Translations under genes and position numbers: made by a program
Origin: Enterobacteria phage vB_EcoM_IME540
Sequence record: MT150133.1
Length of the DNA stretch: 64,000 bases
Direction: 5' to 3' (one strand)
Shown: positions 4,125-60,924 of the stretch, piece by piece
Layout: each line of letters opens with the position of its first letter
Numbering within the stretch: the stretch's first letter is position 1
The notes under the pieces: model-generated
Told to the model about the DNA's origin: nothing
The model's input: only the letters and a program-made list of their open reading frames with translations
The model's database searches: none

Positions 4125-4133
4125 ATTACCTTC

Positions 4134-4325: not shown

Positions 4326-4528
4326 TGTACCTTTAAGCAATATTCTTCTACATGCTGCTTACGTTTATTTTTATCTATAAAAGTATATTCAACATATTCA
4401 CCGATATACCATTTATCGGTGTTGTGTTGACTTTTTATAGGGCATTTAGTTACTCGGGTTTCGGACCAGTGTCGAATAATTTCCGCTTTATTTTTAGGGT
4501 CAAACGGATGCGGGTAATGGGCTTTCAT
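4316..4528 (-). CDS. hypothetical protein (70 aa)
   Basis: Track ORF overlapping the 3' end of the macrodomain gene by 29 nt. Confidence 0.5.
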   Translation of the reverse strand: MKAHYPHPFDPKNKAEIIRHWSETRVTKCPIKSQHNTDKWYIGEYVEYTFIDKNKRKQHVEEYCLKVQWL

Positions 4529-4967: not shown

Positions 4968-5320
4968 TTAGAGTTTAATCCTCGATTGTATGAATCAACG
5001 AGTCTGTCTACCATAGACGCGCACATTTCTTTGTACTTTTTATCAGATGGAATACATTCAGTAACGTTTAGACGTTGCTCGTATCTTTTAGAAAGAGTTT
5101 TCTCTTTCATTCGACGATGCTCTACGTCGTTCTGCCCATCTTTAAAAGCAGCCGTGATTTTTGAACTGAATTCGATAATGCATTCAGTATTACTCGGATG
5201 ACAATAATCTTTTGCTGTACGGGTAGCATACTCGACAATTGAATTATTACTATCATAAACTTGTGACGCTAATACTCCCGGAGCAATCAACATAAGCGCT
5301 ATAGTCATCTGCTTAATCAT
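4964..5320 (-). CDS. secreted/periplasmic Cys-containing protein (118 aa)
   Basis: N-terminal signal peptide MIKQMTIALMLIAPGVLASQ and four Cys in the mature part. Sits where T4 vs lies, but identity was not verified. Confidence 0.55.
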   Translation of the reverse strand: MIKQMTIALMLIAPGVLASQVYDSNNSIVEYATRTAKDYCHPSNTECIIEFSSKITAAFKDGQNDVEHRRMKEKTLSKRYEQRLNVTECIPSDKKYKEMCASMVDRLVDSYNRGLNSK

Positions 5321-42241: not shown

Positions 42242-42249
42242 TATAAATA
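42242..42249 (+). promoter_or_regulatory. late promoter TATAAATA (gene 13)
   Basis: Exact motif, intergenic, 21 nt before ATG 42271. Confidence 0.75.
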
Positions 42250-42270
42250 CGGTTATTAGAGGAATAAACC

Positions 42271-43206
42271 ATGGCAAGTGAATCATATAACCCTAAGCAA
42301 CTCAAGGACGCAATCCTGCGCCGCCTGGGTGCACCGATTACGAATATTGAAGTAACTACAGACCAAGTATACGATTGCATCCAGCGCGCCCTGGAGCTCT
42401 ACGGTGAGTATCATTATAACGGCTATAACAAAGGTTATCAGGCTTTTTATATAGGCCATGATGACGAAGAAAAATTCCGTAACGGCGTATTTGACCTTAA
42501 AGGCCGTAATATATTTGCGGTAACACAAATTTTAAGAACTAATGTAGGTTCTTTAACATCTATGGATGGCCAAGCGACTTATCCATGGTTTACTGATTTT
42601 GTATTAGGCCTAGCTGGTATTAATGGCGGTCTTGGAACTTCTTGTAACAGCTTTGGGCCTAATGCCTTTGGTGCTGACCTCGGGTATTTTACACAATTAA
42701 TGCAATATCGTTCTATGATGCAGGACCTTTTGGTTCCATTGCCTGATTATTGGTATAACGATGCCACTGAACAGTTGAAGGTAATGGGTAACTTTGTTAA
42801 AGGCGATTTTATTGTAATTGAAGTTTATACTCGCTCTTTTAATGGGGTCGATTCTATGGTAGGAAATACCGCAGGATATGGATATGCCTCTGGTGGGTGC
42901 GACGAAAATGAATGGAGCCCCGGAGCTATTTGGGATAACCCGGCTCGTCGTATTTCAGGTATGAGGGCAGGTGAAGACCTTGGTTTGCAAGATGGTTCAT
43001 ATAATAACCGTTGGGTCAAAGATTATGCGACGGCATTGGTTAAAGAAGTCAATGGTAATATTTTGGCCAAACACCAAGGCATGCAACTTGCGGGTGGAAC
43101 CACTGTAGATGGTATTCGATTGATTGAAGAAGCTCGTTTAGAAAAAGAACGCCTTCGCGAAGAATTAGATTTACTCGACCCACCAACACCTATTTTAATT
43201 GGATAA
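42271..43206 (+). CDS. 13: gp13 neck protein
   Basis: 311 aa (T4 309). Synteny wac-13-14-15. Confidence 0.85.
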
Positions 43207-43208
43207 TT

Positions 43209-43982
43209 ATGGCTACTTTCGATTCGAGTTTATTTGCCAAGCTGGAAAATAATACTGGCTATGCTAACACGAACGAAACTGAAATAATGAATCCGTTCGT
43301 CAACTTCTACAAGCATGAGAATACCCAAACATTGGCTGATGCTTTAGTTGCTGAGTCTATTCAAATGCGTGGTATTGAGCTTTATTATATACCACGTGAA
43401 TACGTTAATCCAGACCAGATATTTGGCGAAGACCTTCAGAACAAATTTACTAAAGCCTGGAAATTTGCAGGTTATTTGGATTCCTTTGAAGGTTATTCCG
43501 GTGACAATACTTATTTCAGTAAGTTCGGTATGATGGTTAATGATGAAGTAACAATCACAATTAACCCTAACCTTTTTAAACATCAATGCAATGGCACTGA
43601 ACCTGTTTCAGGTGATTTGATTTATTTCCCTATGGATAACAGCCTATTCGAAATTAACTGGGTGCAACCTTATGACCCGTTCTATCAAGTGGGTGCTAAT
43701 GTCCAGCGTCGAATCACTGCTACCAAGTTCATTTACAATGGTGAAGAACTTCGTCCTGAATTACAGAGAAATGAAGGTATTAATATTCCTGAGTTTAGTG
43801 AGCTTGATTTAATGCCTGTTAAGAATATCGACGGATTGGCTGATATCTCCGACATTCAATATGAAGAGGTCAATGAGATTAATGCTGAAGCGGCGGAATT
43901 CGTACATCCTTATGTTGTAATTAATGGACGAGGAGAAGATGCTCCTCCTACAGCATTCGATGATGCTTTTTTAGATGATTAA
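43209..43982 (+). CDS. 14: gp14 neck protein
   Basis: 257 aa (T4 256). Synteny. Confidence 0.85.
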
Positions 43983-43989
43983 ATAATAC

Positions 43990-44011
43990 ATGGCGCATGG
44001 TGCGCCATTTT
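43990..44011 (+). terminator. hairpin (weak terminator) between 14 and 15
   Basis: ATGGCGCA-TGG-TGCGCCAT followed by TTT. Abuts the gene 15 SD TAGGAGG. Confidence 0.4.
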
Positions 44012-44021
44012 AGGAGGTTTG

Positions 44022-44884
44022 ATGTTTGGACATTGGTATAATAGTTCGCTACGTCGCTATATTGTTTTGATGGGTGATTTATTTTCCCATGTTCAAGTAG
44101 CACGTCAAAGAGAAGATACAGGGCTTAAATTTATTAAAGTTCCTATTACGTATGCTTCTAAAGAAAGATTTATGGCAAATTTGGGTAAATGGACGGCAGT
44201 ACAGAATATTCCAAATCCTAATATGACAGCTAAAGAACGGGCCGAACAAAAAGCTAAAGTGGAAACAGTTCTTCCGCGTATGAACCTCCAAATGGTTGAT
44301 ATGCTTTACAACTCACAATATAAAACAGCCCTTCAAAACAGAACACAAATTCAATTTGAGAATGGCGACCCACGTAAGCGTGTCAGCCAATATTCTCCTA
44401 CTCCGGTTAAAATGATTTTCGAACTGGGTATTTACACTAGAACCCAAGATGATATGTTCCAAATTGTAGAACAGATTATGCCTTATTTCCAACCTCACTT
44501 CAATACAACTATCACTGAACTCTATACAAACGAAATTAAATTTGACCGTGATATCCGTATTGTGTTCCAATCTATAGCAATGGATGAACAATTAGAAGGT
44601 GATACCACTTCTAGACGTCGCTTAGAGTGGTCTATGATGTTTGAGGTTAATGGTTGGTTATATCCTCCTGTGAAGGAAATGGAAGGCGAAATTAAAACCA
44701 TTTATCTTGATTTCTTTGCCAACTCAAAGGAACTCGCTCCTGAAGGTAATTTCGAATCGGTTGATAGCGAAGTGGTTCCTAGAGGTGTAGAAGAAAAAGA
44801 ATGGGACGGTAAGTCCATTCAAACATATTCACAAGATATTCCAGTGCCTGTCGAGCCAGCGCCTCCAGCACCAAGGAGAAACCC

Positions 44885-44888
<4 letters not shown>
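44022..44888 (+). CDS. 15: gp15 tail sheath stabiliser / tail terminator
   Basis: The track start at 44019 is a TTG; ATG 44022 follows [61 protein letters not shown] and [11 protein letters not shown] match T4 gp15. Confidence 0.93.
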
Positions 44889-47198
<2,310 letters not shown>

Positions 47199-47227
47199 AC
47201 AATAAAGCATAACCAAGAGGATTCAAA

Positions 47228-49210
47228 ATGGCTTTATTATCACCGGGCATTGAGCTCAAAGAAACGTCCGTACAGAGTACTGTCGTTCGTAACGCAACGG
47301 GTCGTGCAGCGCTGGTTGGTAAATTCCAGTGGGGCCCTGCTTTCCAGGTAACTCAAATTACTAACGAAGTTGAACTGGTGGATTTGTTTGGAGGTCCTAA
47401 TAACGAAGTTGCTGATTACTTCATGTCGGGTATGAACTTCCTCCAGTATGGTAACGACCTTCGTACTGTTCGTGTTGTTAACCGTGAATTCGCTAAAAAC
47501 GCGTCTCCGGTAGCGGGTAACGTCCAAACCACTATTACTACTGCAGGTTCTAACTATGCGGTAGGCGATAAAATTAATATCAAATATAACCAGACTGTTG
47601 TTGAATCTGAAGGTCGTGTAACTTCGGTCGATACAGACGGTAAAATTCTATCAGTGTTTATTCCTACCGGCAAGATTATTTCTTATGCTCGTTCTGTTAA
47701 CCAGTATCCGAACCTAGGCCCTGCGTGGACTGCTGAAGTTACTTCTGCCTCTTCCGGTGTTTCTGGTACTATTACTGTCGGTAAAATTGTAACCGATTCC
47801 GGTATTCTGTTGACTGAAGCAGAGAACAGTGAAGAAGCTATTACTTCCCTGGAGTTCCAAGCATCTCTTAAACAGTTTGGTATGCCTGGTGTGGTCGCCC
47901 TTTATCCTGGTGAAATTGGTAGTACTCTAGAAGTTGAAATTGTTTCTAAAGCGGCTTATGATGCTGGTTCTACTAAAATGTTGGATATTTATCCAAACGG
48001 TGGTACTCGTGCTTCTGTAGCTAAAGCGGTATTCAACTACGGCCCTCAGTCCGATAACCAGTATGCTATTATTGTTCGTCGTGATGGTGCAATCGTAGAA
48101 TCCGTCGTACTTTCTACCAAAGAAGGCGAAAAAGACGTTTACGGTAATAACATCTATCTGGATGATTATTTCGCTAAAGGCACTTCGAACTATATCTTCG
48201 CTACCTCTCTGAACTGGCCGGCCGGTTTTAGTGGTATCATCAATCTTATGGGTGGTGTATCTGCTAACGATCAGGTTACTGCGAGTGATTTGATGCAGGG
48301 TTGGGATTTGTTTGCCGACCGTGAAGCACTCCATATTAACCTTTTGATTGCTGGTGCCGTTGCCGGTGAAGGTGATGAAGTTGCTTCTACCGTCCAGAAA
48401 CACGTTGTTAGTATTGCTGATGAACGTCAGGATTGCTTGGCATTTATTTCTCCTCCTAAAGGACTGTTGGTTAACGTTCCATTGACTCGTGCAGTAGATA
48501 ATCTTATCGACTGGCGTACCGGTGCAGGTACTTTCGATACCAACAACATGAACATTAGCACCACTTATGCTGCTATTGATGGTAACTATAAATATCAGTA
48601 TGACAAATATAATGACGTAAACCGTTGGGTGCCTCTGGCCGCTGATATGGCTGGTTTGTGTGCACGTACTGATGATGTTTCTCAGCCTTGGATGTCTCCG
48701 GCAGGTTATAACCGTGGCCAGATTCTTAACGTTCTGAAATTGGCAATTGAACCACGTCAAGCACAACGTGACCGCATGTACCAGGAAGCTATTAACCCAG
48801 TTGTTGGTTTTGCTGGCGGTGATGGTTTCGTATTGTTTGGTGATAAGACTGCAACTAAAGTTCCATCTCCGATGGACCACATTAACGTTCGCCGTCTGTT
48901 CAACATGCTTAAGAAAAATATCGGTGATGCCTCTAAATATAAACTGTTTGAATTGAACGACAACTTCACTCGTTCAAGCTTCCGTATGGAAGTTTCTCAG
49001 TACTTAGATGGTATTAAGGCACTTGGTGGGATTTATGAAGGACGCGTGGTTTGTGATACTACAGTGAACACCCCTGCGGTTATCGACCGTAATGAGTTTA
49101 TTGCTAATATCTACGTTAAACCGGCCCGTTCTATTAACTACATCACGTTGAACTTCGTTGCAACGAGCACTGGTGCTGATTTTGATGAATTGATTGGACC
49201 TTTAGTATAA
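47228..49210 (+). CDS. 18: gp18 contractile tail sheath
   Basis: 660 aa (T4 659). MALLSPGIELKETSVQSTV... Synteny. Confidence 0.95.
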   Translation: MALLSPGIELKETSVQSTVVRNATGRAALVGKFQWGPAFQVTQITNEVELVDLFGGPNNEVADYFMSGMNFLQYGNDLRTVRVVNREFAKNASPVAGNVQTTITTAGSNYAVGDKINIKYNQTVVESEGRVTSVDTDGKILSVFIPTGKIISYARSVNQYPNLGPAWTAEVTSASSGVSGTITVGKIVTDSGILLTEAENSEEAITSLEFQASLKQFGMPGVVALYPGEIGSTLEVEIVSKAAYDAGSTKMLDIYPNGGTRASVAKAVFNYGPQSDNQYAIIVRRDGAIVESVVLSTKEGEKDVYGNNIYLDDYFAKGTSNYIFATSLNWPAGFSGIINLMGGVSANDQVTASDLMQGWDLFADREALHINLLIAGAVAGEGDEVASTVQKHVVSIADERQDCLAFISPPKGLLVNVPLTRAVDNLIDWRTGAGTFDTNNMNISTTYAAIDGNYKYQYDKYNDVNRWVPLAADMAGLCARTDDVSQPWMSPAGYNRGQILNVLKLAIEPRQAQRDRMYQEAINPVVGFAGGDGFVLFGDKTATKVPSPMDHINVRRLFNMLKKNIGDASKYKLFELNDNFTRSSFRMEVSQYLDGIKALGGIYEGRVVCDTTVNTPAVIDRNEFIANIYVKPARSINYITLNFVATSTGADFDELIGPLV

Positions 49211-49216
49211 TCTATT

Positions 49217-49301
49217 ATCCCAGGCTGTAATATAAAGAACCTAAAACCATTATACCATGTGTTTGGTTACAGCGTACATCACGTAGAATTGCGCCTGGGA
49301 T
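49217..49301 (+). promoter_or_regulatory. structured intergenic element after gene 18 (function unknown)
   Basis: 9-bp long-range stem ATCCCAGGC/GCCTGGGAT (49217-49225 and 49293-49301) enclosing a second stem GCTGTAA/TTACAGC (49224-49230 and 49267-49273). Confidence 0.45.
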
Positions 49302-49347
49302 TGATTATTCTCTTGGAATATGATTTATCAACTGTATAACTAAAAAC

Positions 49348-49374
49348 GTCGCAGGCGCAATCCTGCGACTTTCT
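49348..49374 (+). terminator. rho-independent terminator after gene 18
   Basis: GTCGCAGG-CGCAAT-CCTGCGAC followed by TTTCT. Confidence 0.7.
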
Positions 49375-49378
49375 GGTA

Positions 49379-49386
49379 TATAAATA
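49379..49386 (+). promoter_or_regulatory. late promoter TATAAATA abutting the HNH ORF start
   Basis: Exact motif, intergenic, only 5 nt before ATG 49392. The expected start site therefore falls at or inside the ATG. Confidence 0.55.
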
Positions 49387-49391
49387 TAAGT

Positions 49392-50075
49392 ATGATTACT
49401 AATACTCTATTTGAAATACCTATAACAAATCGTAACGTTTCTGCTTTTAAAAATCTTGGGTATCAAGTTAAAAGTGGGAGCTCCCATTTAATAAAATTAG
49501 AAGACTGCCCTGGAAAAATTGCTGTTACGTGTAAATGTGATAAATGTGGCACTTATTATACTGTAACAAAAGGGCGACTTAATGAAACCAATTCTAAGTT
49601 CTGTAAAGAGCATCGTTGGGAAGTCTATTCAGAAACAAGAAAAGAATATTGGAATTCTGATGAAGGCATAAAAATCCGTAAAACCAAAGGGCCTAAAATT
49701 TCTAAGTCTAAAAAAGGTATAAAGATTGAAGCTTGTTCAGGACCTAAAAACGGAAGATGGAATCCTAACAAATCTGAACGTAATAAATATTATTATTCAG
49801 TGAGGTCTTTTACTAATAAGACTTTTAAAGAAGAAGTTGATAATCTACCAAATAGACATCTAAGCGGGATATGTGGTGTTAAAGGAGCTTATCAATTAGA
49901 CCATAGGGTATCTATCAAATATGGATTTGAAAATGGCGTCCCTCCCGAAATAATAGGACACATTTGCAATCTAGAAATGATTCCTTGGGAAAAGAATCGA
50001 AGTAAAGATTCTAAAAATAGTATAGATTTAGATATGCTATTCCATTTAATTGAAGAATATGATAGGAAACACTAA
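49392..50075 (+). CDS. HNH homing endonuclease between genes 18 and 19
   Basis: 227 aa. C-terminal HNH core YQLDHRVSIKYGFENGVPPEIIGHICNLEMIPWEKNRSK, an N-terminal Cys cluster CKCDKCG...FCKEH, and a basic linker. T4 has nothing at this position. Confidence 0.75.
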   Translation: MITNTLFEIPITNRNVSAFKNLGYQVKSGSSHLIKLEDCPGKIAVTCKCDKCGTYYTVTKGRLNETNSKFCKEHRWEVYSETRKEYWNSDEGIKIRKTKGPKISKSKKGIKIEACSGPKNGRWNPNKSERNKYYYSVRSFTNKTFKEEVDNLPNRHLSGICGVKGAYQLDHRVSIKYGFENGVPPEIIGHICNLEMIPWEKNRSKDSKNSIDLDMLFHLIEEYDRKH

Positions 50076-50078
50076 CTT

Positions 50079-50570
50079 ATGGAACTTACGGATATCACTA
50101 GGGCCTTCGAGTCAGGTGACTTTGCACGCCCTAACCTTTTCGAAGTGGAAATTCCATTTCTGGGTAAAAACTTTAGCTTTAAATGTAAAGCAGCACCTAT
50201 GCCGGCAGGCATTGTAGAAAAAGTACCGGTTGGCTACATGAACCGTAAAATTAACGTAGCCGGTGACCGTACGTTTGATGATTGGACCATTACCATTTAT
50301 AACGATGATGCACATGACACCCGTCAAGCAATTGTCGATTGGCAGAATCTCTGTCACGGTATGACCAATGAAATTACCGGTGCAGCACCTGCAGAATATA
50401 AGAAACAAGCAGTAGTTCGCCAGTTCCATCGTGACGGCAAGACTGTGACCAAAGAAGTTACAATTTACGGCTTATGGCCTACTAACGTTGGTGAAGTCCA
50501 GATGGACTGGGACTCGAATAACGAGGTAGAAACATTTGAAAGCACATTTGCTATTGACTGGTGGGAATAA
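50079..50570 (+). CDS. 19: gp19 tail tube protein
   Basis: 163 aa, as in T4. Synteny. FARPNLFEVEIPFLG... Confidence 0.92.
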   Translation: MELTDITRAFESGDFARPNLFEVEIPFLGKNFSFKCKAAPMPAGIVEKVPVGYMNRKINVAGDRTFDDWTITIYNDDAHDTRQAIVDWQNLCHGMTNEITGAAPAEYKKQAVVRQFHRDGKTVTKEVTIYGLWPTNVGEVQMDWDSNNEVETFESTFAIDWWE

Positions 50571-50599
50571 GTTTTTACTTTTATAGCAAATTATGATAG

Positions 50600-50607
50600 T
50601 ATAAATA
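50600..50607 (+). promoter_or_regulatory. late promoter TATAAATA
   Basis: Exact motif, intergenic, 30 nt before ATG 50638. Confidence 0.65.
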
Positions 50608-50637
50608 CATTCAAACAATGAAGTCAAGGAGTTTAGA

Positions 50638-51219
50638 ATGTATTGTACTTACTTAACCATATACACGGGGTCTAAACTACCCCGTCGTTATATTGGCTCA
50701 ACATACGTTGAAAGGATTCTCAAAGAAGGATATAATGGTTCTGTATTATCCCAAGCATATAAAAAGATTTGGAATCTAGAACGTAAAGAAAATCCGCACC
50801 TTTTCAAAACCAGAATTTTATCTTTATTTGAAACCGATAAAGAAGCTCGTATAGCTGAGAAAGAGCTTCAAATAAAGTATAATGTAGTTAAATCTAAAAA
50901 CTATATAAATATGTCATTAGCTCAGCCTGACGGGTTCTTTGGAATGTCTCGTAAAGGGATTCCAATGAGTGAACATGCCAAACAGCTACAAAGAGATTGT
51001 AGGTTAGGTAAAAAGAGGCCTGAACATTCTAAAGCTCTAAAAGGACGTAAGCGACCAGACCAAGCCAAAGCTATGTCTGGTGAAGGTAATCCGATGTTTG
51101 GTAAAGAACATCCGGCTAAAGGCAAAAAGATTAATCAGCCAAGGATGATTTGCCCTATCTGTGGTGTTGAATCAACTCGTTCGGCTATAACACGTTATCA
51201 CAAACATGAAAATGAATGA
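50638..51219 (+). CDS. GIY-YIG homing endonuclease between genes 19 and 20
   Basis: 193 aa. MYCTYLTIYTGSKLPRRYIGSTY...GYNGS (GIY-YIG type). NUMOD3-like repeats (PMSEHAKQLQ, RPEHSKALKGRKRP, GEGNPMFGKEHPAKGK). C-terminal CPICG zinc motif. Confidence 0.75.
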   Translation: MYCTYLTIYTGSKLPRRYIGSTYVERILKEGYNGSVLSQAYKKIWNLERKENPHLFKTRILSLFETDKEARIAEKELQIKYNVVKSKNYINMSLAQPDGFFGMSRKGIPMSEHAKQLQRDCRLGKKRPEHSKALKGRKRPDQAKAMSGEGNPMFGKEHPAKGKKINQPRMICPICGVESTRSAITRYHKHENE

Positions 51220-51220
51220 G

Positions 51221-51228
51221 TATAAATA
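51221..51228 (+). promoter_or_regulatory. late promoter TATAAATA (gene 20)
   Basis: Exact motif, intergenic, 48 nt before ATG 51277. Confidence 0.7.
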
Positions 51229-51236
51229 GAATTATC

Positions 51237-51254
51237 AAGGAGCTTCGGCTCCTT
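51237..51254 (+). promoter_or_regulatory. 5'-leader hairpin of the gene 20 late transcript
   Basis: AAGGAGC-TTCG-GCTCCTT, a few nt downstream of the expected late start site. Confidence 0.5.
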
Positions 51255-51276
51255 ATCCCATTCATCGGAGACTCTA

Positions 51277-52851
51277 ATGGCAAACTTTAATACAATATTA
51301 AGTTTTCTTAAGCCATGGGCTAATGAAGACGAAAAAGAATATAAACAACAAATTAATAACAATTTAGAGTCTGTCACCGCACCTAAGCTTGATGATGGCG
51401 CTCGCGAAATTGAGACACAAGAGCAAAATATTCCTTATAATGCTCTTATGCAACAGATGTTTGGTAGTAATGAGCCTGAAGTTAAAAATACCAGGGAACT
51501 TATTGATACCTACCGTAATTTAATGAACAACTATGAAGTCGACAATGCCGTACAGGAAATTGTGTCTGACGCTATTGTCTATGAGGATGATAAAGAAGTA
51601 GTTGCATTGAATTTAGACGGGACAGAATTTAGTCAAGCAATTAAAGATAAAATCTTGGCCGAATTCAGTGAAGTTTTAAACCTTTTAAATTTCCAACGTA
51701 AAGGTACTGACCATTTCCAACGCTGGTATGTAGACTCAAGAATTTTCTTTCATAAAATTATAAACCCTAAAAAAATGAAAGATGGCGTACAAGAGCTTCG
51801 TCGCTTAGACCCACGCCAAGTCCAATATATTCGTGAAATCGTTACACGTATGGAAGATGGCGTTAAAGTTGTAGACGGATATCGCGAGTTTTTCGTTTAT
51901 GATACAGGCCATGAAAGTTATTGCGCTGATGGACGCATTTATTCAGCCGGGACTAAAGTTAAAATTCCTCGTGCTGCAGTGGTTTATGCTCATTCTGGAT
52001 TATTAGATTGTTGTGGTAAAAACATCATTGGCTATTTGCAACGTGCTATTAAGCCTGCAAACCAGCTTAAATTGATGGAAGACGCAATGGTCATCTACCG
52101 TATTACACGTGCTCCTGACCGTCGTGTGTTTTATATCGATACAGGTAATATGCCTTCACGTAAGGCTGCAGCACAAATGCAACATATCATGAACACGATG
52201 AAAAACCGTGTGGTGTATGATGCTTCGACAGGTAAAATTAAAAACCAACAACACAATATGTCCATGACTGAAGACTATTGGTTGCAACGTCGTGATGGTA
52301 AAGCGGTAACAGAAGTTGATACAATGCCAGGTGCTACTGGTATGAGTGATATGGATGACGTTCTTTATTTCCGCACAGCACTTTACCGTGCGTTGCGTGT
52401 TCCTGAATCACGTATCCCTAGCGAGTCTAATTCTGGTGTTATGTTTGATGCCGGTACAGCAATCACTCGTGACGAATTAAAATTCTCTAAATGGATTCGT
52501 CAACTACAAAACAAATTTGAAGAAATTTTCCTAGACCCGTTAAAAACAAACCTCATTCTTAAAAAGATTATTACAGAAGATGAGTGGGAAAAGGAAATAA
52601 ATAATATTAAAGTTACGTTTAACCGTGATAGCTATTTCAGTGAAATGAAAGATGCTGAAATCATGGAACGCAGAATCAATATGCTAACGATGGCTGAACC
52701 ATTTATTGGTAAGTATATTTCACATCAAACGGCTATGAAAGATTTCCTCCAAATGACCGACGAAGAAATTAATCAAGAAGCTAAGCAAATTGAAGAAGAG
52801 TCTAAAGAGGCTCGTTTCCAAAACCCAGATGAAGAAGAAGAGGATTTCTAA
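51277..52851 (+). CDS. 20: gp20 portal protein
   Basis: 524 aa, as in T4. Synteny, with recalled similarity ([14 protein letters not shown]...). Confidence 0.95.
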
Positions 52852-53096
52852 TGGAAGATTTAATCGAAGCTATTAAATCAAACGACCTCGTAGCAGTTCG
52901 TAAAGCAGCAGCCCCGCTTATCGAATCTCGAGTAACCGCTTTGATTGAAGCCCGTAAAGCAGAAATTGCTCGCTCCGTTATGATTGAAGGCGAAGAAGCT
53001 GACGAAGATGACGAAGACGACGAAAAATCCGATAAAGCAGATAAGAAAGACAAAAAAGAATCTGACGATGCGGATGATGACGAGGACGACGAATAA
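52851..53096 (+). CDS. 67: gp67 prohead core protein
   Basis: 81 aa. [20 protein letters not shown]... with a poly-acidic tail, like T4 gp67 ([18 protein letters not shown]...). Confidence 0.9.
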
Positions 53097-53524
53097 TGTT
53101 CCTTATCCCTGATGATTACGAATTAACTCTAGAAAGCGTAGAGGCCAAAATTCCAGAAGCACAGGGACGTTTTGCTGCTCTTTCTGAAGCGCTCGAGAAA
53201 AGCGATATAAATAATCTTGTAGAGAACATGATTGCTGAAGGCGATATCGAATGTGCTATCGCTCTTGGTTCTTTAAATGAATCAATGGCTCTTAACGAAT
53301 TTATAGTTAAACACGTTTCCTCTAAAGGTGAGCTTACTCGTACTAAAGATATTAAAACCCGTCAACGTAATGCGTTCCAAACGACAGGTTTATCTAAAGC
53401 AAAACGCCGTCAGATTGCTCGTAAAGCATCTAAAACCAAACGTGCTAATCCGTCTACTCAAGTACGTGCCGAACGTAAGCGTAAGAAAGCCCGTTCTAAA
53501 CGTAAAGCTTTTGGACTCAACTAA
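53096..53524 (+). CDS. 68: gp68 prohead core protein
   Basis: 142 aa (T4 141). Basic C-terminus. Synteny. Confidence 0.85.
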
Positions 53525-54159
53525 TGAAACCTGAATTGCTCATCGAACATTGGGGACAACCAGGTGAAATTATCGATGGGGTTCCTATGTTGGAATCTCA
53601 TGATGGAAAAAATTCTGGGCTTGCTCCCGGCCTTTATATAGAAGGCATTTTCATGCAAGCAGAGGTAGTTAACCGTAATAAACGCCTTTACCCAAAACCT
53701 ATTTTGGAAAAAGCCGTTGCCGATTATATGGCAGAACAGGTTGCTACTAAACAAGCTTTAGGAGAATTAAACCACCCACCTCGTGCTAACGTTGACCCTA
53801 TGCAAGCTGCTATCATTATTGAAGATATGTGGTGGAAAGGTAATGATGTTTATGGACGTGCACGTATCATCGAAGGTGACCATGGCCCTGGTGATAAACT
53901 AGCTGCAAATATCCGAGCTGGCTGGGTTCCTGGTGTTAGTTCTCGCGGTCTTGGTTCTTTAACTGAAACCAATAAAGGATATAAGCGTGTAAACGAAGGT
54001 TATAAATTAACCGTCGGTGTTGATGCAGTATGGGGACCATCTGCTCCTGATGCTTATGTAACTCCGAAGCAAATTACAGAATCACAAACGGTAGAAACCG
54101 ATACCAGTGCCGATGACGCCTTTATGGCTCTCGCAGAGGCCATGAAAAAAGCGTTATAA
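53524..54159 (+). CDS. 21: gp21 prohead core protease
   Basis: 211 aa (T4 212). LGELNHP and SSRGLGS motifs. Synteny. Confidence 0.92.
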   Translation: MKPELLIEHWGQPGEIIDGVPMLESHDGKNSGLAPGLYIEGIFMQAEVVNRNKRLYPKPILEKAVADYMAEQVATKQALGELNHPPRANVDPMQAAIIIEDMWWKGNDVYGRARIIEGDHGPGDKLAANIRAGWVPGVSSRGLGSLTETNKGYKRVNEGYKLTVGVDAVWGPSAPDAYVTPKQITESQTVETDTSADDAFMALAEAMKKAL

Positions 54160-54162
54160 ATA
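54155..54162 (+). promoter_or_regulatory. late promoter TATAAATA (gene 22)
   Basis: Exact motif overlapping the gene 21 stop codon, 27 nt before ATG 54190. Confidence 0.7.
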
Positions 54163-54189
54163 TTATTATCTAAACAACAGGACTACAAA

Positions 54190-55005
54190 ATGCTTAAAGA
54201 ACAACTGATCGCCGAAGCACAGAATATTGATGCTTCCGTTGCTCTTGACAGTATTTTCGAATCAGTTAATATTTCTCCGGAAGCAAAAGAAACTTTCGGC
54301 ACTGTATTCGAAGCTACCGTCAAGCAACACGCCGTGAAACTGGCTGAATCTCACATCGCTAAAATCGCTGAAAAAGCGGAAGAAGAAGTCGAGAAAAATA
54401 AAGAAGAAGCTGAAGAAAAAGCCGATAAGAAAATCCAAGAAGCTGCCGGTCGTTTCCTTGACCACGTTGCTAAAGAATGGATGGCTGAAAACCAGCTGGC
54501 TGTTGATAAAGGTATTAAAGCCGAACTGTTCGAATCCATGTTGATGGGTATGAAAGAACTGTTTGTTGAACACAATGTGGTTGTTCCAGAAGAAGCAGTA
54601 GATGTTGTTGCTGAAATGGAAGAAGAACTCCAAGAGCAGAAAGATGAAACCGCTCGTCTGTTCGAAGAAGTTGGTAAGCGCGACGCGTATATTAATTACG
54701 TACAGCGTGAAGTTGCTGTTACGGAAGCAACTAAAGACCTGACTGAATCCCAAAAAGAAAAAGTTAGTTCTCTGGTAGAAGGCATGGATTATTCCGATGC
54801 ATTCGGTAAAAAAATTGGCGCTATTGTTGAAATGGTTAAAGGTCAATCTGACGTTGAAAACCCAATCACCGAAGCCGCTATAAATAAAAATGTAGACGAT
54901 GCTGCGGCACTGAATTACATTTCAGAAGCAGTTGAAGAAAAAGGCGCTAAGCCTACCCTGTCCTTCGCGGACCTGTCTGCAATCGCAGCATCACGAATTT
55001 CTTAA
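54190..55005 (+). CDS. 22: gp22 major prohead scaffolding core protein
   Basis: 271 aa (T4 269). Glu/Lys-rich and helical. Synteny. Confidence 0.92.
   Translation: MLKEQLIAEAQNIDASVALDSIFESVNISPEAKETFGTVFEATVKQHAVKLAESHIAKIAEKAEEEVEKNKEEAEEKADKKIQEAAGRFLDHVAKEWMAENQLAVDKGIKAELFESMLMGMKELFVEHNVVVPEEAVDVVAEMEEELQEQKDETARLFEEVGKRDAYINYVQREVAVTEATKDLTESQKEKVSSLVEGMDYSDAFGKKIGAIVEMVKGQSDVENPITEAAINKNVDDAAALNYISEAVEEKGAKPTLSFADLSAIAASRIS
54879..54886 (+). promoter_or_regulatory. candidate late promoter TATAAATA for gene 23, inside the 3' end of gene 22
   Basis: Exact motif 140 nt upstream of ATG 55027. No motif exists in the short 22-23 gap. Could be a chance occurrence. Confidence 0.4.
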
Positions 55006-55026
55006 TTTAATAAGGTTATACAACAC

Positions 55027-56586
55027 ATGAAAAAGAATGCATTAGTTCAAAAATGGTCCGCTCTGCTGGAAAACGAAGCCCTTCCTGAAATCGTGGGTGC
55101 TTCTAAACAAGCTATCATTGCTAAAATTTTCGAAAACCAGGAACAAGATATTCTGACCGCTCCTGAATACCGTGACGAAAAAATCTCCGAAGCATTTGGT
55201 TCTTTCCTGACCGAAGCTGAAATTGGCGGTGACCACGGTTATGATGCTACCAATATCGCAGCTGGCCAGACTTCTGGTGCTGTAACTCAGATTGGGCCGG
55301 CAGTAATGGGTATGGTTCGTCGTGCTATTCCTCATCTGATTGCTTTTGATATTTGTGGTGTTCAGCCTCTGAATAACCCTACCGGCCAGGTATTTGCCCT
55401 TCGTGCAGTTTATGGTAAAGACCCTATCGCTGCTGGCGCTAAAGAAGCTTTCCATCCGATGTATTCTCCGGACGCTATGTTCTCTGGTCAGGGCGCTGCT
55501 GAAACTTTCGAAGCACTGGCTGCAAGCAAAGTTCTGGAAGTTGGTAAAATTTATTCTCACTTCTTCGAAGCTACCGGTGCTGCACACTTCCAGGCTGTTG
55601 AAGCCGTAACCGTTGATGCTGCTGCTACTGATGCCGCTAAACTGGATGCTGCTATTACCGCTTTGATTGAAGCTGGTAAGTTGGCTGAATTGGCTGAAGG
55701 TATGGCTACTTCTATCGCTGAACTTCAGGAAGGCTTTAACGGTTCCCAGGACAACCCGTGGAACGAAATGGGCTTCCGCATCGACAAACAAGTTATCGAA
55801 GCTAAATCCCGTCAGCTGAAAGCAAGCTATTCTATCGAACTGGCACAGGACCTTCGTGCAGTACACGGTATGGATGCAGATGCTGAACTGTCCGGTATCC
55901 TTGCTACCGAAATTATGCTCGAAATCAACCGTGAAGTTATCGATTGGATTAACTACTCTGCACAGGTTGGTAAATCTGGTATGACCAACACCGTTGGCGC
56001 TAAAGCTGGTGTGTTTGACTTCCAGGACCCGATTGATATCCGTGGTGCTCGTTGGGCCGGTGAGAGCTTTAAAGCCCTTCTGTTCCAGATTGATAAAGAA
56101 GCAGCCGAAATCGCTCGTCAGACCGGTCGTGGTGCTGGTAACTTCATCATCGCTTCCCGTAACGTAGTTAACGTACTGGCTGCAGTTGATACTTCTGTAA
56201 GTTATGCAGCTCAAGGTCTGGGTCAAGGTTTCAACGTTGACACAACCAAAGCAGTATTTGCCGGTGTTCTTGGTGGTAAATATCGCGTTTACATCGACCA
56301 GTATGCACGTTCCGATTACTTCACCATCGGTTATAAAGGCGCTAACGAAATGGACGCAGGTATCTACTATGCTCCGTACGTTGCACTGACCCCGCTGCGT
56401 GGTTCCGATCCGAAGAACTTCCAACCGGTAATGGGCTTCAAAACTCGTTACGGTATCGGTATCAACCCGTTCGCTGACCCGTCTGCACAGGCTCCTACCA
56501 AACGTATTCAGAGCGGTATGCCTGACATCGTTAACAGCCTTGGTCTGAATGGTTACTTCCGTCGCGTATATGTTAAAGGTATCTAA
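55027..56586 (+). CDS. 23: gp23 major capsid protein precursor
   Basis: 519 aa (T4 521). Long matching stretches to recalled T4 gp23, including AIIAKIFENQE, GSFLTEAEIGGDHGY and the C-terminal FRRVYVKGI. Confidence 0.98.
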   Translation: MKKNALVQKWSALLENEALPEIVGASKQAIIAKIFENQEQDILTAPEYRDEKISEAFGSFLTEAEIGGDHGYDATNIAAGQTSGAVTQIGPAVMGMVRRAIPHLIAFDICGVQPLNNPTGQVFALRAVYGKDPIAAGAKEAFHPMYSPDAMFSGQGAAETFEALAASKVLEVGKIYSHFFEATGAAHFQAVEAVTVDAAATDAAKLDAAITALIEAGKLAELAEGMATSIAELQEGFNGSQDNPWNEMGFRIDKQVIEAKSRQLKASYSIELAQDLRAVHGMDADAELSGILATEIMLEINREVIDWINYSAQVGKSGMTNTVGAKAGVFDFQDPIDIRGARWAGESFKALLFQIDKEAAEIARQTGRGAGNFIIASRNVVNVLAAVDTSVSYAAQGLGQGFNVDTTKAVFAGVLGGKYRVYIDQYARSDYFTIGYKGANEMDAGIYYAPYVALTPLRGSDPKNFQPVMGFKTRYGIGINPFADPSAQAPTKRIQSGMPDIVNSLGLNGYFRRVYVKGI

Positions 56587-56602
56587 GATATAACCTTATT
56601 AT

Positions 56603-56632
56603 GGGAGACTTCGGTCTCCCATTCTTGTTTCT
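56603..56632 (+). terminator. rho-independent terminator after gene 23
   Basis: GGGAGAC-TTCG-GTCTCCC followed by ATTCTTGTTTCTG. Also sits just downstream of the convergent minus-strand ORF. Confidence 0.75.
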
Positions 56633-56635
56633 GTA

Positions 56636-56902
56636 TTATGCAATCTTAACTCGGCGGTTGATGATATCACGGAAGTCAATACGATTTTCTTGGATTTTCA
56701 GCCAGTTACCAGATTTGTCTTTGGTATGGGTAGAGTATTCACCGTTCCACCAGAAGTCGGTAGCATAAGCCATGGCTTCGTATTTCTTAACTAAGGCATT
56801 CACTGCATTACCATTAGGATTGTTACCGAATTTTTCTACCAGAGCTTTGATGTCTTTATCAAGAGCGGAAAGAGTAGTACGAATAAAGTTTAACTTGTTC
56901 AT
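56636..56902 (-). CDS. hypothetical early protein (88 aa) antisense to the late cluster
   Basis: Trimmed to ATG 56902 (GAGGAG SD). Has its own early promoter at 56932-56961. MNKLNFIRTTLSALDKDIKALVEKFG... No family recognised. Confidence 0.6.
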   Translation of the reverse strand: MNKLNFIRTTLSALDKDIKALVEKFGNNPNGNAVNALVKKYEAMAYATDFWWNGEYSTHTKDKSGNWLKIQENRIDFRDIINRRVKIA

Positions 56903-56931
56903 TTTTAATCTCCTCATGTTTTGATAGGTCT

Positions 56932-56961
56932 ATAGTAACATGTGAGAATCTTGCTGTAAAC
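56932..56961 (-). promoter_or_regulatory. early promoter (GTTTAC -18 nt- TGTTACTAT)
   Basis: Conserved 15-mer TACTATAGACCTATC present. Interleaved with the plus-strand late promoter of gene 24. Confidence 0.7.
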
Positions 56962-56967
56962 AACTTT

Positions 56968-56975
56968 TATAAATA
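56968..56975 (+). promoter_or_regulatory. late promoter TATAAATA (gene 24)
   Basis: Exact motif, intergenic, 28 nt before ATG 57004. Confidence 0.75.
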
Positions 56976-57003
56976 AACATATACCCTCAATAAGGAAAGC
57001 GCA

Positions 57004-58287
57004 ATGGCAAAGATTAACGAATTACTGCGCGAGTCAACAACTACTTCCAGCAACTCATTGGGTCGCCCTAATCTTGTTGCTTTGACCCGTGCTACAACCA
57101 AATTGATTTACCGTGATATTATCGCCGAACAACGTACTAGCCAGCCTATTGCTGCACTGTATGGTGTCAAATATCTTACCCCTGATAATGAATTTAGTTT
57201 CCAGACAGGTGCCTCTTATGGTGGTGAAGTTGGTTCTAAAGACCGTGAAACTATCCCAGAACTCACAGATAAGGCCCAGGCGATTGCTCAGGGTGAATAT
57301 TTCAAGTACCAGAATGTGGTTTATAAGGCTCTTAAAGCAAGCCCACTCGCGTCCACTAGCGCCACAGAATTGGCTGATGCTCTTCAAGAAGGTTTAGTGT
57401 CATTAACATGTCGTCTGGTTCCTGATGCTGCCCATACCACTAAATTTGAAGCGAGTGATGTAGAAATCTCTGATGCTGTATTCCAGGTTAATAAATGGAA
57501 TGCTCCGGTTAAGACCCGTAAATTGAAGACGGCTTTGACTGTAGAATTAGCGCAGGATATGGAATCAAATGGCTTTGACGCGCCGGCGTTCTTAGAAGAC
57601 CTCTTGGCTACAGTAATGGCAGATGAAATTAATAAAGACGTTCTGCAATCTCTAATAACCGTATCCAAACGTTATAAAGTTACTGGTGTATCTGATAACG
57701 GCATCATCGATTTGTCTTATGACAGTGCTCCTGAATCTGCACGTAAACTTTATGAACTCGTTTGTGAGATGAATTCTGAAATCCAGAAAACTACTTCTTA
57801 TTCTGGCACGTTTGTTGTGGCTTCAAGTCGTGTGGCTGCAATGCTTGCAGGTTCTGGCTGGTTAAAACATAAACCCGAAGATAATAATTGGCTTCCGGAA
57901 ACTGCATACGGATATTTGTTGAATGGTCTGCCTCTGTTTTGTGACGTTAACAGTCCATTAGATTATGTTACCGTTGGTGTTAAAGAGAATTACGGCGGTA
58001 ATGAAGTTGTCGGTTCTATTTTCTACGCTCCCTATACCGAAGGCTTAGATTTAGATGACCAAGAACACGTCGGTGCTTATAAGGTTATTGTTGACCCGGA
58101 TTCATTACAACCTTCTATTTCTCTGATGGTTCGTTATGCACTATCAGCTAACCCGTACACCGTGGCTAAAGACGATAAAGAAGCTCGTGTTATCGATGCA
58201 ACCAATATGGATTTAATGGCTGGACAGAGCAATATGTCTTATCTGGTTGGCGTTAAACTTCCGGCAATTATTTACGAGGCTGATTAA
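57004..58287 (+). CDS. 24: gp24 head vertex protein precursor
   Basis: 427 aa, as in T4. MAKINELLRESTTT..., RKLKTALTVELAQDMESNGFDAP and RYALSANPYTVAKDDKEAR match T4 gp24. Confidence 0.95.
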   Translation: MAKINELLRESTTTSSNSLGRPNLVALTRATTKLIYRDIIAEQRTSQPIAALYGVKYLTPDNEFSFQTGASYGGEVGSKDRETIPELTDKAQAIAQGEYFKYQNVVYKALKASPLASTSATELADALQEGLVSLTCRLVPDAAHTTKFEASDVEISDAVFQVNKWNAPVKTRKLKTALTVELAQDMESNGFDAPAFLEDLLATVMADEINKDVLQSLITVSKRYKVTGVSDNGIIDLSYDSAPESARKLYELVCEMNSEIQKTTSYSGTFVVASSRVAAMLAGSGWLKHKPEDNNWLPETAYGYLLNGLPLFCDVNSPLDYVTVGVKENYGGNEVVGSIFYAPYTEGLDLDDQEHVGAYKVIVDPDSLQPSISLMVRYALSANPYTVAKDDKEARVIDATNMDLMAGQSNMSYLVGVKLPAIIYEAD

Positions 58288-59567
58288 TGTCTAAGATTGT
58301 AGACCTAATTAAAGAATCCACATTGACGGCTGCCAGCTCGGTTGGCCGTCCTGCTCTTCTTTCATACACCCAAGCAACTAATAAACGAATCTTTAAAGCC
58401 CTAGTTGCTGAACAAAAAACAAATCAACCGGTTGCTGCTCTGTATGGGGTACGTGTACTGAATCCTGACGACAAAATGACTTATCTTGGTGGAGCAACAT
58501 TTGCGGGCCAGATTGGTATGACGGAACGTGAAAATATTCCAGAATTTACTGATTCATCTACAGCTTATGCGGTCGGTGATATGTTCCAGTTTGAAAGCGT
58601 AGTGTTTAAAGTTCTAGAAGCATCTCCTTTCGCCGGAACCACAGAAACCAACCTCAGCGAAGTTATTTCTGAAGCAGTGGCAGCCGGCCATATCCGTATG
58701 GCGTCGGATGCTGCTATTACTTCTAAATTTGAACAAGGCCATCCTGAAATTGCTGAAACCGGATTCCGTATCGACAAATGGCAATCTGAAGTTAAATCGC
58801 GTAAACTGAAAACTTCATTGACAGTCGAATTAGCCCAAGACCTAGAATCTAACGGGTTTAATGCTCCTAATTTCGTTGAAAATCTGCTAGGCATTCAAAT
58901 GGCAGAAGAAATTAATAAGGATGTATTACAGTCATTAATTACCGTGAGCTCTCGTTTTAAAGTCCAGGGTGTTTCTGAAAAGGGTGTATTAGACCTTACC
59001 AACCCTCGCTACGATAATGCCCAGGACCGTGCTCGCACATTATATTATTATATGTGTGAGATGAACTCTGCCGTCCAACGACAGACTTCTTTTGCCGGGA
59101 CTTATGCAGTAGCTAGTTCTCGTTGTGCTGCTATTCTCGCCGCCTCTGGTTGGGTTGAGAAAAAGGAAGACCAGGACGAATTGGCTTATGGTATATTAAA
59201 GAATGGCCTACCACTTTATGCTGATATGAATAGTCCATGTGATTATGTTATTGTTGGTGTAAATGCCCAGATGGGTGAAGGACAGACGGTCGCATCTTTA
59301 TATTATGCGCCTTATACGGAAGGTTTGAATGTGGTTGACGAAGAAGGTGATACTTCAGTTGGTGAATTTAAGGTTATTGTTGACCCGGAAAGCTTACAAC
59401 CTACAGTAGCATTGCTTGCTCGTTATGCATTGACTGCAAACCCTTATACCGTCGCTAAGGACGATAAAGAAGCCCGCATTATTGATGGTTCTGATATGGA
59501 CAAAATGGCTAATCAAAGTCAATTGAGTTCTTATCTCGGCGTAAAATTACCGCCTTTAGAAAAATAA
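58287..59567 (+). CDS. second gp24-family vertex protein paralogue
   Basis: 426 aa, collinear with the upstream gp24; roughly half the positions are identical by eye. Keeps the propeptide MSKIVDLIKE|S and RKLKTSLTVELAQDLESNGFNAP. TAATG junction. Confidence 0.85.
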   Translation: MSKIVDLIKESTLTAASSVGRPALLSYTQATNKRIFKALVAEQKTNQPVAALYGVRVLNPDDKMTYLGGATFAGQIGMTERENIPEFTDSSTAYAVGDMFQFESVVFKVLEASPFAGTTETNLSEVISEAVAAGHIRMASDAAITSKFEQGHPEIAETGFRIDKWQSEVKSRKLKTSLTVELAQDLESNGFNAPNFVENLLGIQMAEEINKDVLQSLITVSSRFKVQGVSEKGVLDLTNPRYDNAQDRARTLYYYMCEMNSAVQRQTSFAGTYAVASSRCAAILAASGWVEKKEDQDELAYGILKNGLPLYADMNSPCDYVIVGVNAQMGEGQTVASLYYAPYTEGLNVVDEEGDTSVGEFKVIVDPESLQPTVALLARYALTANPYTVAKDDKEARIIDGSDMDKMANQSQLSSYLGVKLPPLEK

Positions 59568-59590
59568 AAGGGACCTTGCGGCCCTTTATC
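59567..59590. terminator. bidirectional hairpin terminator between the convergent gene-24 paralogue and rnlB
   Basis: AAAGGGACC-TTGC-GGCCCTTT, with U-rich tracts on both strands. Confidence 0.7.
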
Positions 59591-59592
59591 AT

Positions 59593-60600
59593 TTATTTGG
59601 ATACTAGTTCAATCCATACGGCTCGTAGGGTATCTTTTACACACTCAACGAGCTGCTTTTTAACTTCAACAGGATTTTCTGCATCAGTTAATTCTAATTC
59701 TTCACGGGCAGCTTCTTCTAAGATATCTTGGACTGCCAAGCCCATTACCTTTCCAAAATCCTTCGGCGATACTTCGCCAATCTTACTGATAACGTTGTTA
59801 ATACGGTTAACAGTCACATAATCAGTGAATTGCCACATCAAATCCATATCGTCTTGGGACAAAACTACAGCCGCCTTAATAGGCTTATCAGACTTTTTCT
59901 TCTCGCTGAATTTAGAGTTCTTACATTTAATCGCCACGCGATTTCCATTAGGAAGCCAGATAGGAATATCGGGTTTAAGTACAAAGCCTTCAGCCGTGAA
60001 TACTTTACCTTCTACCTTAGGAATAAAGTCTGTAGAGTTTGCAATAGTTAGGCCTGCGTTATCAACCGCAAAATTATAATCAGGAATAACTGAATCAAAG
60101 TCATTAGGTAATTTAATAAGGTCTTCAAAGCTACCAGTAGCCAGACATGGCGCGACCTTAAACTTATGGATAATACAGAAGGCTTCCATCAATGTATCGG
60201 TTAGAACAGATTCTGAACCATCTTCTTTAGTAACTCGGATATCGAACACATAAAAGTCTTTATCGCCGTAGTCCACATTCTTCTGGATGCCTGTCCCAGC
60301 GAATTCGCCATAAATCTGGTATGACTGATAATTAATCGATTCAATTAGATGTTGAACTGATTTAATAGAATCAGCGTAGTTCTTAAGTACAATTTCATAA
60401 CCATAGAAATCTTCAGCAGGGAGGATAGGGCCAGTGCGCTTGGCGCATGTGACTGCGTCACGTTCTATGATTAAACTAAAGTTGGTTCCATGAATCTTCT
60501 CACGTGCTACCCATTCACCACCAGTCAAACCGTTAGTACGGAGTTTTTCGATAAACTTACTGTTGTAGTGGTTTTCGAGACTGCTATATTTCTTGAACAT
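59593..60600 (-). CDS. rnlB: RNA ligase 2
   Basis: 335 aa (T4 334). [20 protein letters not shown]...[16 protein letters not shown] (ligase motif I KxHGxN)...[24 protein letters not shown] matches T4 Rnl2. Confidence 0.96.
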
Positions 60601-60686
60601 AAATCACCATAATAAATATAATTAAATAGAAGAGCTAGTAGTCTTCTGTCACCAAGCCAAATGGGTTAACGGAAGGACCTAGACCC

Positions 60687-60712
60687 ATTATATCACACCT
60701 AAATTTAAAGCA
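60687..60712 (-). promoter_or_regulatory. middle (MotA-dependent) promoter: TGCTTTA -13 nt- TGATATAAT
   Basis: Minus strand ATATGCTTTAAATTTAGGTGTGATATAAT, 87 nt upstream of the rnlB ATG. Confidence 0.6.
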
Positions 60713-60714
60713 TA

Positions 60715-60924
60715 TTACTTTGAACTAGAACGCGCTTTGCGCCGAACCTTGTTGTTCAATCTTTTACGATAAACAACCTTTTCTTTCGCTTTAAATTTGG
60801 CCTTGGCTTGTTCTACATCAACCCATGCTTTGGCCATGTCCTTAGCGGTCCCACCCATTTTTTTAGCAATTTCTATAAAATTCAACCCAGATTCGTGTAA
60901 AAAATGTACTTTAACCTTATCCAT
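60715..60924 (-). CDS. hypothetical small basic protein (69 aa), T4 24.2/24.3 position
   Basis: Trimmed to ATG 60924, because the track 5' extension covers the promoter. MDKVKVHFLHESGLNFIEIAKKMGGTAKDMAKAW... looks HTH-like, with a Lys/Arg-rich tail. Confidence 0.55.
   Translation of the reverse strand: MDKVKVHFLHESGLNFIEIAKKMGGTAKDMAKAWVDVEQAKAKFKAKEKVVYRKRLNNKVRRKARSSSK

Follow-up and report, generated by a model that had tools for sequence, protein, structure and literature searches.

The stretch of DNA analysed here (the window) comprises 64,000 nucleotides (nt) of Enterobacteria phage vB_EcoM_IME540 (sequence record MT150133.1), and its feature of interest is a pair of genes of the gp24 family of head vertex proteins. 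The upstream gene, 24a (57004–58287, + strand), is the orthologue of T4 gene 24 and encodes a head vertex protein precursor of 427 residues. The downstream gene, 24b (58287–59567, + strand), encodes a second gp24-family vertex protein of 426 residues and appears to be an old out-paralogue of the first. The two frames meet in a stop/start overlap, TAATG (58285–58289). The local gene order is 20-67-68-21-22-23-(orf)-24a-24b, in which (orf) is an open reading frame (ORF) of 93 residues, and rnlB lies downstream in the convergent orientation. As judged from this order, both genes occupy the late gene position downstream of gene 23 in the head cluster.

The two products align over their full length in a collinear manner with three small indels (BLASTP), giving 234 identities in 428 positions (55%), 77% positives and an E-value of 3e-176. 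Identity to T4 gp24 is 70% for 24a and 56% for 24b. An earlier note on this DNA had described two intact, full-length gp24-family genes joined head-to-tail, the first near T4 gp24 and the second collinear with it and identical at about half of its residues; all of this holds, as does its statement that T4 carries a single gene 24 (there is one in the T4 record). The core motif quoted in that note, RKLKT(A/S)LTVELAQD(M/L)ESNGF(D/N)AP, is found in both proteins.

Both products match Pfam family PF07068 (330 bits for 24a and 324 bits for 24b). The E-values against the crystal structure of T4 gp24 (PDB id: 1YUE) are 8e-198 for 24a and 2e-150 for 24b, compared to 1.4e-11 and 1e-11, respectively, for the best gp23 matches. 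Because the matches to gp24 structures (1YUE, 7VS5, 5VF3) far exceed those to gp23, both proteins can be assigned to the gp24 type rather than the gp23 type. Residues 1–424 of 24a align to residues 1–425 of 1YUE, and residues 1–423 of 24b align to residues 1–422 with three small indels, the insertion domain (I domain) included. Judged by these alignments, both genes are collinear with the solved gp24 structure over its full length, including the insertion domain and its linkers. T4 gp24, known from the crystal and in situ (5VF3, 7VS5, 7VRT), likewise combines an HK97-type core with an insertion domain, and its gene is a late one located after gene 23. No capsid structure of any phage with two copies was returned by PDB searches with 24a and 24b.

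Both proteins begin with a predicted 10-residue propeptide. In 24a this is MAKINELLRE (57004–57033, + strand), the same as the N-terminus of T4 gp24, and in 24b it is MSKIVDLIKE (58287–58316, + strand), assigned from its sequence context; in each case the putative cleavage site precedes S11, and both stretches read as the earlier note had quoted them. The context of the site is LLRE|ST in 24a and L-I-x-E|ST in all nine aligned 24b orthologues. In T4, the 10 N-terminal residues of gp24 are removed by the gp21 protease (PMC9546572). Gp21 is encoded within the window at 53524–54159, and we infer that both propeptides are cleaved by a protease of this type.

The pair is preceded by a T4-type late promoter motif, TATAAATA (56968–56975, + strand), located 29 nt before the start of 24a, and by the Shine-Dalgarno sequence AAGGA of 24a (56992–56996, + strand). 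The Shine-Dalgarno sequence of 24b, GAGG (58276–58279, + strand), lies eight bases before its ATG, within the 3' end of 24a, and the annotation of phage Melville places a ribosome binding site at the equivalent position. The TAATG overlap together with GAGG indicates that translation of 24b is coupled to that of 24a. In annotated records of other genera, the two genes are joined just as closely: they overlap by up to 4 nt, abut or lie 1 nt apart. A motif scan finds no further TATAAATA copy between 56976 and 62576, hence none inside 24a or between the two genes; sigma-70-like matches are at chance level, and a separate promoter for 24b was rejected. Exact TATAAATA motifs number 20 in the window as a whole, where shuffled sequence would give 7.6; 13 of the 20 lie on the + strand from 42242 to 56975, preceding the structural genes.

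A terminator-like hairpin (56601–56622, + strand) follows gene 23 and lies upstream of the gene 24 unit. It has a 9-bp stem with five GC pairs, succeeded by a T-rich tail, and a terminator is annotated at the equivalent position in Salmonella phages NP4 and Melville. At the other end, a GC-rich hairpin, GGGACC-TTGC-GGCCC (59570–59598), separates the convergent 24b and rnlB genes and carries T-rich tails on both strands, with the terminator-like hairpin itself at 59570–59584; terminators are annotated at its equivalent in NP4 and KLB2. Codon adaptation relative to gp23 is 0.47 for 24a, 0.415 for 24b and 0.44 for the portal gene. On the basis of these motifs, 24a and 24b should be made together, late in infection, from one message.

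The existence of a gene 24 pair is already known from GenBank annotation and is not a new discovery. The window is a Bp7/QL01-type Dhakavirus (JS98-like; Bp7, QL01 and JS98 are classified in this genus), and a 5.7-kb region is 98.2–98.5% identical to Salmonella phage ABTNLS3 and to Escherichia phages FB, E33, Bp7, LQ5, PSD2002 and WG01. Identity of the window to Bp7, QL01 and WG01 is 98–100%. In Bp7, 24a is 100% and 24b 99.8% identical to its counterpart in the window. The same gene order, junction and flanks (gene 23 upstream, rnlB convergent downstream) are found in JS98 and its relatives JS10, IME08, Bp7, WG01, QL01, VR7, VR5, VR20, VR25, VR26, CJ20 and dhaeg. The genes are labelled 24a/24b in JS98, JS10 and IME08, 24(2) in VR7, capsid vertex protein I/II in VR5, VR20, VR25, VR26, CJ20 and dhaeg, and head vertex protein II in ZX14. 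In the literature searched, which did not extend to the JS98 genome papers, no paper discussing the pair was found, and papers on S16-like phages, F48, Kc305, STP4-a and a Jiaodavirus proteome do not mention a second vertex protein.

A census of the phage collection (tblastn, E ≤ 1e-60) locates gp24-family genes at 1495 places in 1377 phage records, which corresponds to 118 records with two places. The number of records bearing a 24b-type gene is the same: 87 with at least 80% identity to 24b of the window, 22 from Marfavirus, and nine further records in the 80–90% identity band to Marfavirus 24b, just above the Kanagawavirus-type rows at 79.7–79.9%. All 120 matches listed have two gp24 places. 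In IMG/VR, a 24a-type gene lies directly upstream in each of 16 24b-type loci, with the tblastn matches 2–8 nt apart. Neither among the 118 two-copy records nor among the 16 IMG/VR loci was a genome seen with 24a alone or 24b alone. The pair is present in five genera: Dhakavirus, Gaprivervirus, Gelderlandvirus, Marfavirus and Kanagawavirus. A single gp24 is found in T4 and other members of Tequatrovirus, in Karamvirus, Jiaodavirus, Tegunavirus and Kagamiyamavirus, and in Erwinia phage COW86c, Acinetobacter phage ZZ1, Aeromonas phage 31.2 and Krischvirus JSE. Kanagawavirus is seemingly polymorphic, with two copies in CIP9, Kc305, ZX14 and Q7622 and one gp24 place in Edwardsiella phage PEi20.

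Selection on the two genes was estimated as the ratio of nonsynonymous to synonymous substitution rates (dN/dS; Nei-Gojobori, unsaturated pairs only). Between the window and JS10 it is 0.044 for 24a and 0.054 for 24b, between the window and CLB_P2 0.036 and 0.048, and between the window and JS98 0.060 and 0.055, respectively. The overall range is 0.036–0.075 for 24a and 0.046–0.062 for 24b, and gp23 gives 0.07–0.12 in Dhakavirus pairs. 24b is under purifying selection as strong as that on 24a, and it is intact in every 24b-bearing locus examined. The earlier note had named relaxed selection and decay of the second copy as evidence that would count against its reading, and the values for 24b are like those of 24a. 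With these ratios, an intact gene and a 24a partner in every listed record, a second copy in the course of becoming a pseudogene is excluded.

A comparison of nine 24a, nine 24b and eight single-copy gp24 proteins (T4 numbering is used below) reveals an asymmetry between the two members of the pair. At nine otherwise invariant positions 24b alone carries a fixed change: L27Y, T32N, L34R, Y36F, K56R, Y57V, F66Y, E335Q and F341Y. The reverse pattern, in which 24a deviates where 24b and the single-copy proteins are invariant, occurs at no position, and wherever the single-copy gp24s are invariant, 24a has the same residue. With nine changes confined to 24b and none in the opposite direction, 24a gives the impression of a canonical vertex protein that has stayed as it was, and 24b of one that has specialised. 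At the same time, none of the 134 positions invariant across the gp24 set is altered in 24b.

Seven of the nine changes fall within residues 27–66, the N-terminal segment up to the start of linker 1 of the I domain. In T4 gp24, linker 1 is disordered at residues 63–81 in the crystal structure and at residues 60–68 in situ (PMC9546572), which places it at approximately residues 60–81; F66Y is therefore within it. In the expanded T4 capsid, residues 26–29 of mature gp24 (gp24*) form a parallel β pairing with an I-domain linker belonging to the next subunit in the pentamer, and residues 11–20 extend onto the neighbouring hexamer (PMC9546572). L27Y is located within the 26–29 strand. A 3-residue insertion in 24b falls in the loop comprising residues 348–359, which is flexible in T4 gp24 (PMC9546572). 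The I domain itself (residues 82–142) is 40% identical between 24a and 24b and is the most divergent long region of the two proteins. It is also the most variable long region in every other comparison, including those within 24a and within 24b, so its variability is not paralogue-specific.

In neighbour-joining trees (Kimura distance, 300 bootstraps, rooted on JSE and Aeromonas 31.2), 24a forms a clade with 99–100% bootstrap and 24b a clade with 100%. The 24a proteins group with c-type gp24 (a single-copy form described below) and with the gp24 of T4, Karamvirus and Kagamiyamavirus at 99–100% bootstrap, and 24b falls outside this clade. The order in which the genera branch is broadly alike in the 24a and 24b subtrees (Marfavirus, Kanagawavirus, Gelderlandvirus, Gaprivervirus, Dhakavirus), which fits joint inheritance of both genes since before these genera diverged. 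Synonymous sites between the two genes are saturated, with a proportion of synonymous differences (pS) of 0.745, 60% of their nucleotides match and no identical stretch exceeds 21 nt; on these grounds gene conversion between the copies was rejected. The nearest single-copy gp24 to 24b is that of Jiaodavirus at 62% identity, which is equally distant from 24a, and no close donor lineage for 24b was found in the phage collection. These sequence relationships suggest that 24b split from the 24a/T4 lineage long ago, either as an ancient paralogue followed by later losses or by acquisition from a deep-branching relative.

The alternative origin is a recent tandem duplication of 24a in situ in a common ancestor of the five genera, after which 24b would have changed in a burst; its outlying position in the trees would then be a long-branch artefact. 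The head-to-tail layout is the classic product of unequal crossing-over, no close donor is at hand (the 62% of Jiaodavirus being the nearest approach among single-copy proteins), and under looser criteria 25 lineage-specific fixed changes are counted in 24b against 7 in 24a. Yet 24a and 24b are sisters in 0% of bootstrap replicates, no alignment column has a state common to 24a and 24b as opposed to all single-copy lineages, and two indel states are common to 24a and the T4 group and absent from 24b. After the radiation, moreover, both genes changed at similar rates, with identities between Marfavirus and the window of 73% for 24a and 78% for 24b. Such an origin is disfavoured and we consider it doubtful. 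The label of tandem duplication given in the earlier note is thus apt for the head-to-tail arrangement and does not extend to duplication of a resident gene in this phage, for 24a is nearer to T4 gp24 than to 24b and the two are sisters in no bootstrap replicate.

The 24b genes of JS98 and LHE83 cluster with those of Gaprivervirus (99–100% bootstrap), and 24a and gp23 of the same phages are of the Dhakavirus type. Synonymous divergence (dS) between the window and LHE83 rises from 0.046 in gp23 to 0.33 in 24a and 1.11 in 24b. This increase and the placement of 24b point to a recombination breakpoint near the junction of the two genes. Alleles of 24b thus move independently of 24a.

Some close relatives carry one gene instead of two at the same locus, and this gene is neither 24a nor 24b. 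The Dhakavirus MX01 has a single gp24 that is 68% identical to 24a and 55% identical to 24b of the window, and its gp68, gp21, gp22, gp23, RnlB, gp24.3 and Hoc are 98–100% identical to those of the window; for Inh and the 93-residue ORF the figure is 95.5%. This c-type gp24 occurs in 19 records, always as a single copy, including MX01 (positions 4001–5281 of locus L005), SP18 of Gaprivervirus (positions 3301–4581 of locus L025), KIT01, AnYang and C6. It has the canonical N-terminal residues and is sister to the 24a clade (88% bootstrap), and in the gp23 tree the phages that carry it nest among two-copy phages. An origin of the MX01 gene as a chimera of 24a and 24b by unequal crossing-over was rejected, as its identity to 24b is 55% against the approximately 87% expected of a chimera that is 68% identical to 24a, and the c-type forms a clade of its own with 19 records. 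The locus therefore has two states in Dhakavirus and Gaprivervirus, either the 24a–24b pair or the c-type gene, and MX01 and SP18 represent natural, nearly isogenic one-gene controls for the pair.

How might two vertex proteins be used in one head? In the proposed mechanism, 24a would be the ordinary vertex protein of the T4 type and 24b a second vertex-type capsid protein, apparently inherited together with 24a in at least five genera. A single late promoter would give one message, on which translation of 24b would be coupled to the end of 24a. Both products would be made as precursors with a 10-residue propeptide for the gp21 protease, and both would enter the prohead shell as pentameric capsomers that are not interchangeable. 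That 24a and 24b are both structural vertex capsomers with non-redundant roles is our preferred reading, which we hold with middling confidence, seeing it as evenly poised between right and wrong. In its more specific form, 24a and 24b would most likely assemble into separate homopentamers, each kind taking its own share of the eleven vertices of the prolate head that do not hold the portal. Separate homopentamers are favoured because the fixed changes of 24b sit in the segment whose T4 residues 26–29 pair with the neighbouring subunit. Sorting to different vertex classes could, for example, set the apical vertex apart from the ten shoulder vertices, or a portal-proximal ring from a distal one. 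We put this specific arrangement forward tentatively, as a possibility and not as a probable outcome.

Several points weigh against two non-interchangeable vertex proteins, or against the old split. In T4 one protein fills all eleven vertices. Phages with the single c-type gp24 build heads with a nearly identical gp20–gp23 module, so a second vertex species is not required by the geometry of the capsid. This cuts both ways: one vertex protein suffices, yet where the pair exists both of its members are kept. The connection between the changed residues and the locking of subunits in the pentamer is inferred from contacts published for T4. The literature searched yielded no proteomic, genetic or structural data on 24b. 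Finally, the placement of 24b outside the 24a–T4 clade comes from neighbour-joining trees built on simple distances, in which long-branch attraction is possible, and the strict site-pattern counts are small (3:0:0).

Among other roles for 24b, the one that survives best is that of an assembly factor. The protein would then act in the prohead, for instance in initiation, vertex placement or length control, and would be removed or present in substoichiometric amounts in the mature virion. The 24b-specific changes are mostly N-terminal, in a region whose equivalent in gp23 was proposed to contact the scaffolding core (PMC9546572), and the propeptide of 24b is retained; both would suit such a function. 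On the other hand, the 134 invariant positions and collinearity with the whole of 1YUE exceed what a transient factor would need, and we regard this role as unlikely.

Redundancy is the next candidate. As a spare or dosage copy, 24b would do the same job at the same vertices, and the pair would persist only because a tandem arrangement within a tight operon is difficult to undo. Both proteins are indeed full-length gp24 homologues with the same signals, and a single gp24 suffices in T4, MX01 and SP18. A redundant copy is, however, expected to be lost or to decay, whereas loss of one copy is seen in 0 of 118 records and 0 of 16 IMG/VR loci, with dN/dS of about 0.05 in both genes. The two copies became distinct earlier than the five genera did and have stayed so, free of gene conversion, and the nine fixed changes at universally invariant sites are all in 24b. 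Simple redundancy is quite unlikely on these grounds.

Conditional use, one of the options raised in the earlier note along with two kinds of pentameric vertex and a decoy, would have 24a or 24b employed according to host, temperature or physiological state, so that a given particle carries mainly one of them. The exchange of 24b alleles independently of 24a (as in JS98 and LHE83, with 24b of the Gaprivervirus type) is compatible with this idea, and so is the divergence of the I domain, which protrudes on the surface of the T4 capsid (PMC9546572). With one late promoter and translational coupling, there is no obvious means of differential expression and no switch is suggested by the sequence, which makes conditional use very unlikely. 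A decoy, in which 24b would titrate or mask a host sensor of the vertex protein, is highly improbable. Nothing supports it directly, although the variable I domain and allele exchange would fit an arms race. A protein in that role could do without the propeptide cleavage motif, the complete fold and a constant 24a partner; at the whole-gene level, a dN/dS of about 0.05 gives no sign of diversifying selection; and no defence system is known to sense gp24, a point at which no search was aimed. Taken together, the sequences speak more for two kinds of vertex capsomer than for a decoy, and against simple redundancy; their bearing on conditional use is indirect.

The 93-residue ORF between gene 23 and 24a (56636–56917, − strand) matches PHROG 6003, whose function is unknown, and nothing in Pfam. 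Conserved in JS98, MX01 and SP18, it is missing in CLB_P2, and T4 has the homing endonuclease gene segD at this position. Downstream, the intergenic spot between rnlB and gene 24.3 (approximately 60600–60715 in the window) is variable among relatives, and in JS10 it contains an extra ORF of 369 nt. In Gelderlandvirus and Jiaodavirus, rnlB is separated from 24b (or 24) by a gene that is DprA-like or hypothetical. The alignments with IME08, IME341 and UP19 are interrupted by inserts whose annotation is that of a tail-fibre-like gene or of homing endonucleases.

The division of labour proposed for 24a and 24b has a parallel in the same head. The older split between gp23 and gp24, which made the vertex protein a diverged copy of the major capsid protein, follows the same logic, in which a capsid protein paralogue is specialised for one class of lattice positions. 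Gp23 and gp24 are only about 21% identical and their distinct positions are proven, whereas 24a and 24b are 55% identical and the pair is known here from its genes. Compared to T4, which has one gene, the additional protein 24b differs from T4 gp24 and the other single-copy gp24s compared at nine otherwise invariant positions, in addition to three small indels. The T4 record carries a note on gene 24 with the label 'os', which would refer to osmotic-shock-resistance mutations; if so, one physical property of the capsid can be shifted by mutating its vertex protein. How little may be needed to redirect a paralogue is illustrated by the bypass-24 mutations of T4, in which a few residues at subunit interfaces set which paralogue fills the vertex (PMC9546572, PMC10580926).

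The second gene is neither young nor decaying: it represents an old lineage under tight selection that always accompanies 24a. Its presence raises the question of why there are two vertex proteins in a T4-type head when T4 needs one. If separate homopentamers do occupy different vertices, this would be the first phage capsid to devote separate proteins to separate classes of vertex. The answer is relevant to the specification of vertices in prolate capsids, and to the engineering of the heads of therapeutic Dhakavirus and Gaprivervirus phages.

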